64,000 nucleotides of DNA from Candidatus Latescibacterota bacterium (GTDB lineage Bacteria > Latescibacterota > UBA2968 > GCA-2709665): assembly GCA_965116875.1 (NCBI GenBank), contig OZ220733.1:2464001-2528000 (forward strand), written 5' to 3'. This document shows positions 45,237 through 48,392 of this stretch, one piece after another. Below the pieces are notes generated by a model that made no database searches, had not been told where the DNA came from, and worked only from the letters and a program-made list of their open reading frames with translations. Position numbers and translations under genes: made by a program. The stretch's first letter is position 1; each line of letters opens with the position of its first letter.

Positions 45237-45362
45237 CGCGAAACGTCCACTGCCGAATGATCGGTGGACCCGCAGGAGGCCGTGTTCGGTGTACGTGGTT
45301 GGCCGATGGCGATTGATGATGAAAACCAGGTCGACGAGGTCTGCAAGGAATCAGGAAACGCG

Positions 45363-45822
45363 ATGCCGGAGGTTGAAATGTACAGACACGGAACGCCGTG
45401 CTGGGTTGATCTGGCGACAGTTGATTTGGCCGGAGCGAGGGCGTTCTACGCCGGGCTATTCGGTTGGGAGTACGTGGACGAGGAGATGGGGGAGATGGAC
45501 ATCGGGGTTTATTCGATGGCGATGCCGGGCGGGTCCGCGGCGGCGGCGATTTGTGAGTCGGGTCCAGGGCAGATCCGCTCAGACGGGGCCGCGAAGTGGA
45601 ATCTCTACGTCTCGGTGGATGATGTCGACGCCGTCCTCGGACGGGTGGCGGCGAATGGCGGGGCTGTGCTGGCAGGTTCGAGAGACGTGGATCGCGCGGG
45701 TCGGGTGGCGGTGATCGCGGACCCGACGGGTTGTGTGACGACGCTGTGGGAGCCCGGCGAGTTCGTGGGATGCGGAGTGATGTCGGAGGTGGGCGCGTTT
45801 TCCTGGTGTGAGCATCTGAGCA
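45363..45822 (+). pseudogene. VOC/glyoxalase (CFP32-like, two-domain) gene truncated at the start of its second domain
   Basis: The first VOC domain is complete (GTPCWVDL...WNLYVSVDDVD...IADPTG). The second begins GAFSWCEHLST, then the frame runs into antisense sequence of the convergent gene up to 46004. Confidence 0.7.
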
Positions 45823-45834
45823 CGTACCGGAATC

Positions 45835-46572
45835 TCACGCGTTCCCGTCCGTCAGAATCGACACCACCTGCGGGACGGCCTCTTCCACGCATTCATCCAC
45901 TTTATCGCCTTCCATGGGTGCGGTGTGCGCGCGCAGTTCGATATTCCTGTAACCTGCGACGCCGTCAAGGGTACTCGACCAGGCGCCGGCGCCCGAAGGC
46001 CTGAATCTGGCCTCCAACTCCTTTCGTGGATACTCCCATCGCAGGTCCCTGCCGCGGTAGTGGACCCGGTCCCCGTCCTTCACGTCGTGCATCCGCATCC
46101 TGCGGTGTACACCGAAGTGAATCAGCCTGCGATGCGCGTTGTCCGGCTGCGGTCCGGCCTCCTCCCACGCCTCAATCAGGTAGTTTCCCGTCGCATGCGA
46201 CAGCCTGAAACCGTCACCATCTCGTTCGATCATTGGCACCCTGCCCGCGGCCGTGATGTAGGCGGTGGGGACGCCTCTCAACTCGAACTCCAGCATATCG
46301 TGCAAACTGCACGAACTGGCGCCGCATCAGTCCACCACCCCCATGACAAGCCCGTCGCACTCCGGGACGATCTCCTCCACGAGCTTCTTGGTGCAGACGC
46401 GGTAGGGCGATGACTTTTTCCAGGGTCCCACCACAGTCGCGTCGTACTCCGCCGCGAGCCGCTCACCGACGCCATTGAGAACGGCTCCCGCGGTTCGCTT
46501 TCCCGGATCCAGAAGTCCGATCCTGGCGCCGTTCAGGCGGGTCAGTCGGGATGCGGGTTCGATTCTTGACAC
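45835..46572 (-). CDS. UGSC-family selenoprotein (in-frame UGA at 46327-46329) with an internal Obg C-terminal (OCT)-like insertion, 245 aa
   Basis: GTG start after AAAGGAG. Track ORFs 46327-46572 and 45835-46305 are in one frame and join as ...CDGLVMGVVD-U-CGASSCSLHDMLEFELRGVPTAYIT. The N-terminus LNGARIGLLDPGK and C-terminus EEAVPQVVSILT fit the UGSC family pattern. A hairpin follows the UGA. Confidence 0.82.
46298..46314 (-). promoter_or_regulatory. Bacterial SECIS-like hairpin
   Basis: The mRNA reads UGA-(12 nt)-UCGUGCA-GUU-UGCACGA: a perfect 7-bp stem with G as the first loop base, 20 nt after the UGA. Confidence 0.75.
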
Positions 46573-46808
46573 AGGTTTGCTCCTTTCTGATCTTTACCCT
46601 CGGGTTAACGTCCGCAGTGTCAACGTATTGGGAATGTCGCCGGATTCGGTGCGTCCGAGCGCTCCTGCCCTTGACTCCGGTAATATAGCCAATGATCGAT
46701 CAGGTGTCTGCTACAAGTTTGCGTGATCATTCCCGGCGGATGTGGTCCCCCGCATCGCTCGTCGCCTTTGCGCGACCGTAGAATCCGAGCAAATTCGAGG
46801 AGGTCTTT

Positions 46809-47546
46809 ATGTTGACTGGCAAGCAGGTCCGACAGTTTCGGGAAGACGGCTATCTCGTTTTCGAAGCCCTGATACAGGGCGAGCGACTGGCCTATTACAA
46901 GCGGGTGTTCGATGAACTGGTCGCCAAGGGGAGCGAGTTGACCGAGGAGACGCCGCACTGGTCGCTCGAGTTGGACGAACACGGTAATCCACGGGCGGGT
47001 CTATTGCACAAGGTTCAGGGGGTTTGCGTGGTGGATGCCCGTGTGCTGGAACTGGCACGTGAGTCGGCGATTCTGGACCGCGTGGCCGTATTGACCGGTG
47101 AGAATATCGACGTGTTTGGCACCAAGTTCTTTCCGAAGCTGCCCAACGGCGGCACGTCGACAAGCTGGCATCAGGACAATTACTATTTTGGCACCGATAC
47201 GGACCGGATAATCAGTTGTGGAATCTATCTGGAAGATTCAAACGTGGAGAACGGGTGTCTGCGGGTGGTTCCCGGCAGCCACCGGACGGGAAGGATTGTC
47301 GAACACAGCAGGAATCCGGGCAGACATGGCAGCTGGACACAGGTCGATGAATCGCGGGCCGTGGATCTGGTCATTCCGGCTGGTACGGTCGTTCTGTTTT
47401 CCGCCAATCTCCTGCACGGCGCTTATGATAACCACAGCAATCGCACGCGCTACAGCACGGCCTGGCATTATCTGCCGGAGGAACTCAATCCGGACAGGTT
47501 TCCAAAGGGCGTATACGAAGATCGACACGTGGCGCGTACACATTGA
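46809..47546 (+). CDS. Phytanoyl-CoA dioxygenase (PhyH) family Fe(II)/2OG enzyme
   Basis: FREDGYL, WHQD, NGCLRVVPGSH, LLHGAYDNHSNRTR. Confidence 0.92.
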   Translation: MLTGKQVRQFREDGYLVFEALIQGERLAYYKRVFDELVAKGSELTEETPHWSLELDEHGNPRAGLLHKVQGVCVVDARVLELARESAILDRVAVLTGENIDVFGTKFFPKLPNGGTSTSWHQDNYYFGTDTDRIISCGIYLEDSNVENGCLRVVPGSHRTGRIVEHSRNPGRHGSWTQVDESRAVDLVIPAGTVVLFSANLLHGAYDNHSNRTRYSTAWHYLPEELNPDRFPKGVYEDRHVARTH

Positions 47547-47588: not shown

Positions 47589-48392
47589 TCAGAGCATTTC
47601 CGCAATTTCGTCGAGATACTCTTTAAGGGACAATCCGTGGCTTCTTGCCAAAATCGCCAGCGTGTCGATTCTTGTCCGTTCCCCCTTTTCAATCCTTCGC
47701 ACATGGCGTTCAGAAAGCCCTCGTATATCGGCCTGTATAAGCCCGCACTTCTTGCGCAATTCGGCAACGGCCTCACCGAATCGGAGGTCGTACATCAGTC
47801 TTTCCCGATCCTTTTTCTCACGCCATGTTTCGTCTTTCAGGTAGCGAACAGCATCCAGGTCAATGTGTACATCGACCTCAGGCCAGTGTATATAACTGCC
47901 TTCACTGGAGATGGTAAATGAAGAACGCTGTTGGGATGGAATCCGCTCCAGGGCGGGCATTTCGGCAAAACCCGCTCTGAATAAGGTATGATCACACGCC
48001 ATGACAAAGAGTTCCTCACCTACGACCTGTGCATCGGCAATGAGTTGATCAGGGCATCCAAGGCTCCAAGCCGTTAGCACACGCTTTGGAACATCCTTCG
48101 TCGAATGCACAATAATATGTCGGCTGCTCTTGAGTTTTGCCTCGTAAAGCATCTGCGGCAAAAACTGAGCGTTGCCGTCTTCGCGAACGAATAGGGTTCG
48201 AAGATGGTTCCGCTGATTGGCAGCACGGACAAAATCACTTACCGTAGGAAGATCGGCAACGGAAGTTAATACGAAAATATACCGAGCGTTCACCTCGCTT
48301 TCATCCGGTCTAAAAACGGTGAAAGTGGGCGGAATGATGTCATAGCTAAATTGATCTTGAGCCCAGACAATCATTTCAGCAGTCCTTGCCAT
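47589..48392 (-). CDS. DUF2442-like protein with C-terminal XRE-type HTH (putative antitoxin)
   Basis: FTISSEGSYIHWPEVDVHIDL resembles DUF2442. FGEAVAELRKKCGLIQADIRGLSERHVRRIEKGE is an HTH. Confidence 0.75.
   Translation of the reverse strand: MARTAEMIVWAQDQFSYDIIPPTFTVFRPDESEVNARYIFVLTSVADLPTVSDFVRAANQRNHLRTLFVREDGNAQFLPQMLYEAKLKSSRHIIVHSTKDVPKRVLTAWSLGCPDQLIADAQVVGEELFVMACDHTLFRAGFAEMPALERIPSQQRSSFTISSEGSYIHWPEVDVHIDLDAVRYLKDETWREKKDRERLMYDLRFGEAVAELRKKCGLIQADIRGLSERHVRRIEKGERTRIDTLAILARSHGLSLKEYLDEIAEML

Follow-up and report, generated by a model that had tools for sequence, protein, structure and literature searches.

Two adjacent reading frames on the minus strand of a Candidatus Latescibacterota genome are a single gene, which encodes a 245-residue selenocysteine (Sec) protein and is a variant of the UGSC family. 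It is a real selenoprotein gene that annotation has missed, of a known family with a variant architecture, and it lies within the 64,000-nucleotide stretch of DNA analysed here as a whole (hereafter, the window). The complete explanation, namely one gene whose UGA82 would be read as Sec through a stem-loop and whose product forms a distinct UGSC subtype bearing an Obg-C-terminal-like insert, is considered highly probable. The gene structure, the conservation of the UGA, the Cys homologues, the Sec machinery and the domain architecture are directly established, and from the sequence we infer the insertion of Sec at UGA82 itself.

Regarding the gene layout, the minus-strand ORF 46572..46327 opens with a GTG start, runs for 81 codons and stops at a TGA (46329-46327); the strong ribosome-binding site claimed for it can be read directly from the sequence as AAAGGAG (46580..46586, minus strand), 7 nt upstream of the GTG. 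When this TGA is read as U, 163 further codons stay open down to a second TGA at 45837-45835, exactly as in the original prediction, resulting in a product of 245 residues with U82 in the context ...GVVD-U-CGASSCSLHDMLEFELR. The whole selenoprotein gene thus occupies 45835..46572 on the minus strand, from the GTG (46572-46570) through the putative Sec codon (46327..46329) to the terminal TGA (45837-45835). It is monocistronic, and the position of its start is conserved among orthologues, with either GTG or ATG as the codon. Standard gene callers were expected to split such a gene and indeed do so: each of the 30 proteins retrieved from databases is a mere fragment, of 138-196 aa, and the N-terminal 81-aa piece is deposited as well (P0034).

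The in-frame TGA is present at the identical codon in 25 out of 25 copies of the subtype, which share 57-95% protein identity. In a protein search of 41 related genomes, matches were obtained in 29, and each of the 15 full-length matches, i.e. those spanning query residues 1-3 to 242-245, contains exactly one TGA. Among 22 translated loci from GTDB-representative genomes, the segment VVD-U-CGASSCSLHDMLEFE is invariant and the protein is well conserved on both sides of the U. At the scale of the phylum, scanning 168 genomes with PF24696 returned 64 UGSC matches in 57 genomes, all 64 with exactly one in-frame TGA, and a search of metagenome DNA with alignment A5 added one close relative (L107). 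The reading of the TGA as a nonsense mutation of a former Cys codon, and consequently of the gene as a pseudogene, would require a single base change from TGC to TGA; faced with the retention of the TGA at one codon throughout the subtype and across the UGSC matches of the phylum, as well as with the purifying selection that persists on both halves, this reading is vanishingly improbable.

In homologues, the place of the UGA is taken by Cys. A profile-free search of 1.84 billion representatives gave 152 matches, and the metagenomes contain full-length Cys forms of the subtype, of 225-254 aa and with the same architecture (P0032, P0036, P0039, P0040, P0047, P0049, P0050 and P0062). The U82 column is Cys in every homologue of alignment A1 (15 of 15 sequences), as confirmed in the raw sequences; the original prediction had made its case depend on Cys or Sec at this codon, and no other residue appeared there. 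More distant lineages are represented by fragments starting at about residue 90-93 (P0043, P0048, P0051, P0052, P0055, P0067 and P0070), the kind of piece left by a gene caller halting at a Sec codon.

Those fragments relate to another reading of the locus, in which UGA82 is a true stop and the locus comprises two genes, one for an 81-aa protein and the other for a separately initiated protein of 153-156 aa, starting at TTG codon 90 or ATG codon 93. Start codons do exist just past UGA82 and both halves are held as separate database proteins, but no evident ribosome-binding site precedes codon 90 or 93, the Cys-form homologues are single chains over the same length range as given above, one Pfam domain (PF24696) spans the UGA, and the AlphaFold2 (AF2) model joins both halves in one sheet. 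In addition, codons 83-92, which lie upstream of the first downstream ATG and thus before the proposed restart, differ at 5 codons among 23 close copies and all of these differences are synonymous, which indicates that the stretch is translated in the read-through frame, contrary to what a stop-and-restart model predicts. Two genes are therefore a highly improbable alternative, and the single read-through gene is retained in what follows.

Two genomes hold additional copies. Genome G011 contains three full copies of the subtype (L034, L035 and L045, which are 86%, 85% and 64-65% identical to the protein of the window), each with an in-frame TGA and a hairpin. In G013, a partial extra 3' copy (C1:955455-955736, equivalent to L047 3001-3279) covers residues 152-245 at 90% identity, is free of stops and lies ~5 kb downstream of the intact gene copy, and a second partial copy (G013:C1:2294889-2295098) covers residues 172-242 at 59% identity, likewise without stops.

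The genome from which the window is taken, a single contig of 5.45 Mb, encodes the complete machinery for Sec, so that the absence of this machinery, named in the original prediction as a ground for giving it up, did not materialise. The profile scores of selA (549 bits), selB (373 bits), tRNA-Sec, i.e. selC (73 bits), and selD (366 bits) all exceed the curated cutoffs; selA, selB and tRNA-Sec are adjacent in one cluster (G000:C1:184347-187783), and tRNA-Sec was confirmed with ARAGORN, with the anticodon tca. The selD gene (G000:C1:1070717-1071640, L012) encodes a selenoprotein in turn, its in-frame TGA lying at ...TCG-U-AAKV.... Besides, TGA is the terminal stop of the gene here; the 3' end is included in 21 orthologues, of which 20 likewise stop at TGA and one (L027) at another codon, hence TGA is no general sense codon. 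It could still be proposed that UGA82 is recoded as Cys, Trp or Gly rather than Sec, by near-cognate reading or through an altered code, as this is compatible with the sequence alone and as the Sec pathway is able to deliver Cys at UGA under selenium scarcity. The use of TGA to stop this gene and nearly all of its orthologues, the full selA/selB/selC/selD set together with a selD whose in-frame TGA is at a known Sec position, and a SECIS-like hairpin at the canonical distance nonetheless argue against it, and such recoding is judged very unlikely.

Decoding of UGA82 as Sec would involve a structured RNA element. The perfect 7-bp hairpin UCGUGCA-GUU-UGCACGA with an apical G, reported 12 nt past the TGA, proved exact in both position and sequence, and in the RNAfold structure it continues over a 3-nt bulge into a lower stem of 5 bp, CCAGU/GCUGG (including one G-U pair), for a total of 12 bp over 46319-46290. 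This SECIS-like stem-loop (46290..46319, minus strand), delineated from RNAfold, conservation, low synonymous diversity and rare codons, consists of the lower stem (46319-46315 / 46294-46290), the upper stem (46314-46308 / 46304-46298), the GUU loop (46307-46305) and the 3-nt bulge (46297-46295). As to its background frequency, the window contains 72 perfect hairpins of at least 7 bp (with a loop of 3-8 nt) over both strands, any one site has a hairpin beginning 5-25 nt behind it with a probability of about 0.012, and such a hairpin follows 27 of the 1852 TGA triplets. The fold energy of the 76-nt stretch is ordinary (z -0.95, with 32 of 200 shuffles folding equally well), and the significance of the hairpin consequently rests on its conservation and codon choice; by itself, it would not carry the case for a selenoprotein.

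The 25 copies amount to 16 distinct sequences, among which the only variation in the upper stem is one A-to-G change, which converts a U-A into a U-G pair and accompanies the replacement of His91 by Arg in the most distant copy (G018), and the third base of the loop shows one variant. In the lower stem, one U-G pair becomes C-G in two distinct rows and four of the 16 have lost the pair 12-39; 97.4% of the cells are paired across the distinct sequences. None of the 12 pairs is altered on both sides in this set and 500 of 500 shuffles score equally; covariation is uninformative as the element is almost invariant. Part of this conservation is forced by the conserved peptide C-S-L-H-D. Constraint at the RNA level is supported by low synonymous diversity and rare codons: the 13-codon windows from codons 82-88 show the minimum of the gene in synonymous diversity (0.06-0.10 vs. 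a gene mean of 0.23), the hairpin contains AGT twice as well as TTG, which account for 6.3% of the codons for Ser and 9.6% of those for Leu, respectively, and the joint probability of its seven codons, given the peptide and the codon usage of the window, is 1.6e-5.

Compared with other genes of the family, the homologous codons of canonical UGSC genes from the same phylum form CGUGCA-GUG-UGCACG above a lower stem that differs (GGUC...GACC plus UGU/ACA), and the hairpin of long-form UGSC genes, about as far from the UGA, is an unrelated one (CGGC-GGUC-GCCG); a loop G-U is common to the hairpins of all the UGSC subtypes compared. In E. coli, the determinants of SECIS function are the loop G-U, which contacts SelB, and a bulged U. 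When the region 45700-46700 was scanned against Rfam at E <= 10, only two chance-level rows were returned (a flavivirus stem-loop and a snoRNA), with no SECIS family. In bacterial SECIS of the fdhF type, a SelB-binding hairpin is described immediately 3' of the UGA (PMC9312934). The element of the window resembles this type in that the stem-loop begins 12 nt past the UGA and the apical loop, which opens with G-U, starts 19 nt past it, but differs by its 3-nt triloop and by a bulge on the 3' side; the binding of SelB to it is predicted. In the proposed mechanism, SelB together with Sec-tRNA(Sec) would be recruited by the stem-loop starting 12 nt past UGA82, and UGA82 would then be decoded as selenocysteine instead of the chain ending at residue 81.

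UGSC is an established and abundant selenoprotein family, to which the excerpts considered assign no function (PMC2398784, PMC13188914, PMC9312934); according to the GOS report in the part considered, the UGSC-containing protein from marine metagenomes is characterized by a UxxC motif and counts 255 Sec vs. 21 Cys forms (PMC2398784). The protein of the window matches PF24696 with 90.2 bits against a gathering cutoff of 25, over residues 5-108 and profile positions 16-119 of 172, across the UGA, and a second PF24696 stretch is reported in the C-terminal part. The N-terminal part of the UGSC domain (residues 5-108; 46249..46560, minus strand) contains D81-U82-C83 and C88, and the strand and helix that complete the domain at the C-terminus (residues 206-245; 45838..45957, minus strand) align with the C-termini of canonical UGSC proteins. 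With the NCBIfam equivalog NF041046, the score is 64.6 bits, under the cutoff of 125. The motif of the window's protein, D-U-C-G-A-S-S-C-S-L-H-D...RGVPT, is to be compared with D-U-G-S-C-T-T-C-S-V-H-D...RGIPT in canonical members of the same phylum: the family-defining UxxC is absent, as the Cys at U+3 is missing and a Cys directly follows Sec instead, with the Cys at U+6 being retained. The nine Cys forms of the subtype have G, A, S or C at U+3; the U+6 Cys occurs in five of them and Cys83 in one only. The UGSC-family context advanced in the original prediction is thus borne out by the PF24696 match across the UGA, whereas the motif quoted there was close but inexact, the protein having U-C-G-A and remaining below the NF041046 cutoff. 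The window's protein is a distinct, divergent and non-canonical UGSC subtype.

With canonical UGSC proteins, this subtype shares a homologous alpha/beta domain, a Sec that follows a conserved Asp where a beta-strand ends, the ...C-S-[LV]-H-D...E-x-R-G-[IV]-P-T context and a SECIS hairpin formed by the same codons; in both, Sec forms far outnumber Cys forms and the genes are split by callers. The differences lie in the length (~175-190 aa vs. 245 in the window), in the replacement of U-G-S-C by U-C-G-A and in an insert of ~100 residues. Long-form UGSC fusions also possess the UGSC domain with an identically placed Sec, immediately followed by a SECIS, but their H-U-S-T-C motif keeps UxxC and they carry a large C-terminal partner domain. 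Loci of this long form were encountered in the same phylum (L090-L097, e.g. G102:C1:571035-571514), as frames of ~550-650 codons with a hairpin of the GGUC-loop type; in L093, the big C-terminal extension corresponds to no named family. The long form may correspond to what the GOS paper calls a "UGSC/Unknown_1 fusion" (PMC2398784). In the window's genome, a single UGSC gene was found, with neither a second copy nor a long form. Regarding the selenoproteins GrdB and PrdB, none of the 50 members of family alignment A2 matches PF07355 at E <= 1, this profile had no match in the window's genome nor in the control genomes, and no GrdB/PrdB chain is among the structural neighbours listed.

In alignment A1, the ~100-residue insertion follows strand 103-108 and precedes the C-terminal strand and helix of the family. 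This Obg-C-terminal-like insert (OCT, DUF1967-like), at residues ~109-205 (45958..46248, minus strand), was assigned from PF09269 in relatives and from a fold match. Out of 13 subtype members scanned with PF09269, 10 match at E <= 0.024 and one exceeds the gathering threshold (P0047, with 46.4 bits vs. 27); the window's own protein has no PF09269 match at E <= 10. Modelled alone, the insert reaches a pLDDT of 84.2, and its model aligns with residues 341-416 of 1udx_A with Z 5.6 (71 residues, rmsd 3.2), the next best neighbour being at Z 2.3; 1udx_A also ranks first in Foldseek (probability 0.87, E 0.51). We take 1udx (TT1381) to be Obg from Thermus thermophilus and residues 341-416 to be its OCT domain. 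The insert is accordingly predicted to adopt the Obg C-terminal fold, with a modest score but as the lone match that covers the domain. Both domains have a small beta-alpha fold, and several homologues match the signature ...G-x-H-R-A-L-R-x-A-G-x-x-x-G-D-x-V... in PF09269; unlike in Obg, no GTPase is present in the UGSC subtype and the domain sits inside another domain rather than at the end of the protein. In full-text literature outside paywalled papers, no pairing of a selenoprotein with DUF1967, or of UGSC with Obg, was encountered. In structural terms, the alpha/beta core of this UGSC subtype is interrupted after strand 103-108 by this Obg-C-terminal-like domain of ~100 residues.

The AF2 model of the whole protein is of high confidence (pLDDT 90.4, pTM 0.88) and folds both gene halves into one sheet, with strand 74-80 and helices 82-86 and 88-98 on one side of the insert and strand 210-213 and helix 223-241 on the other. 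In this model, Sec82 is placed right after strand 74-80, where it opens helix 82-86. Besides residue 82, the positions conserved in at least 90% or all of 50 family members are K25, K53, D73, D81, D92 and E97; most of the conserved residues follow strands or sit in helices beside residue 82, which fits an active site centred on it. Foldseek returned nothing at E <= 0.001 for the whole model against the PDB, nor did the A2 profile return anything below E 0.2 against PDB sequences. With an exhaustive structural aligner, the first rank went to 8s7v_H, a chain of the methyl-coenzyme M reductase activation complex (Z 11.2 and rmsd 3.1 over 131 residues), and the next neighbours, at Z 8-9.7, are generic flavodoxin-, Rossmann-, periplasmic-binding-protein-, TIR- and CheY-like proteins. 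The core is thereby predicted to have a flavodoxin- or Rossmann-like fold. A Trx-like fold was the guess for UGSC in the 2008 GOS paper, in the part considered (PMC2398784); no thioredoxin-fold protein appears among the top 50 structural neighbours listed. Judged by its size (296 residues), chain H of 8s7v is probably Mmp7; with the margin over generic folds being small, the likeness is a lead only.

Functionally, Sec82 would be a reactive nucleophile or redox centre, whose resolving partner could be the neighbouring Cys83 or else Cys88, which is more common among homologues. A Sec-based redox role is in line with what was originally proposed, namely a 245-aa redox selenoprotein; the single selenoprotein gene is well supported, and its redox role is putative. 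Only position 82 is invariant among the aligned Cys-form homologues, and this restriction of universal conservation to Sec/Cys reduces the number of residues that qualify as catalytic. It bears on another reading of the active site, according to which the residues Sec82, Cys83, Cys88 and His91 are ligands of a metal or of an iron-sulfur cluster, making of the protein a selenium-ligated metalloprotein and not a selenol/thiol oxidoreductase. The best structural neighbour of the core, 8s7v_H, speaks for this site, since the McrC-like domain of what is probably that chain, Mmp7, binds complex Fe-S clusters through Cys and His, as described in the part considered of the source (PMC12176620). Its Z score is, however, only ~1.5 above those of the generic flavodoxin- or Rossmann-like neighbours, the G018 copy has Arg and the Cys forms have R, L, T or F in place of His91, and Cys88 is missing in four of nine Cys forms, with Cys83 in one only; such a metal site is thus unlikely. 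Equally doubtful is a broader proposal, in which the subtype with the OCT insert would constitute a separate selenoenzyme class that has lost UxxC and is not a thioredoxin-style disulfide exchanger, with a core homologous to McrC/Mmp7 and with Sec82 acting either as a ligand of a metal or Fe-S cluster (along with Cys83 or Cys88) or, on its own, as a nucleophilic selenolate towards a substrate that the insert presents.

The selenoprotein gene is flanked upstream by a divergent gene for a PhyH-type dioxygenase (46809-47546, plus strand) and downstream by a convergent VOC/glyoxalase gene (45264-46004, plus strand). This synteny is found in close kin only and is lost in L036, L038, L040, L042 and L045, so that no operon partner or pathway is implied. 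The VOC/glyoxalase gene is seemingly truncated, with a breakpoint near 45824-45830 and ~360 bp missing relative to L025; the gap comes directly after the stop codon of the selenoprotein gene and removes the second VOC domain encoded in L025, and what is left of the frame extends into the selenoprotein gene in antisense orientation. Further along, a DUF2442 + HTH_3 gene (47589-48392, minus strand) lies between the PhyH and FAA-hydrolase genes; it was detected in 2 of the 22 related loci (L029 and L043), a count that 3-kb flanks may keep too low.

The stretch or parts thereof occur in sponge and coral-reef metagenome runs, and the comparison at the sequence level covered two sponge runs (X3 and X4). 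In a sponge metatranscriptome run (X20), five short contigs of relatives cover parts of the gene. None of this RNA bridges the UGA, as the contig at 46244-46335 reaches just 6 nt beyond the TGA, and DNA is possible in such libraries; for both reasons, these contigs were dropped as evidence of expression.

In metagenomes from aquatic habitats, UGSC ranks with the most abundant families of selenoproteins, still without an assigned function in the excerpts considered (PMC2398784, PMC13188914), and the present locus provides a clean example of a UGSC selenoprotein in a complete genome. The name UGSC understates the diversity of the family, which includes a subtype devoid of UxxC and bearing an Obg-C-terminal-like insert. 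All the public protein entries found for the Sec forms of this subtype being fragments, the selenoproteome counts for these symbiont lineages are too low.
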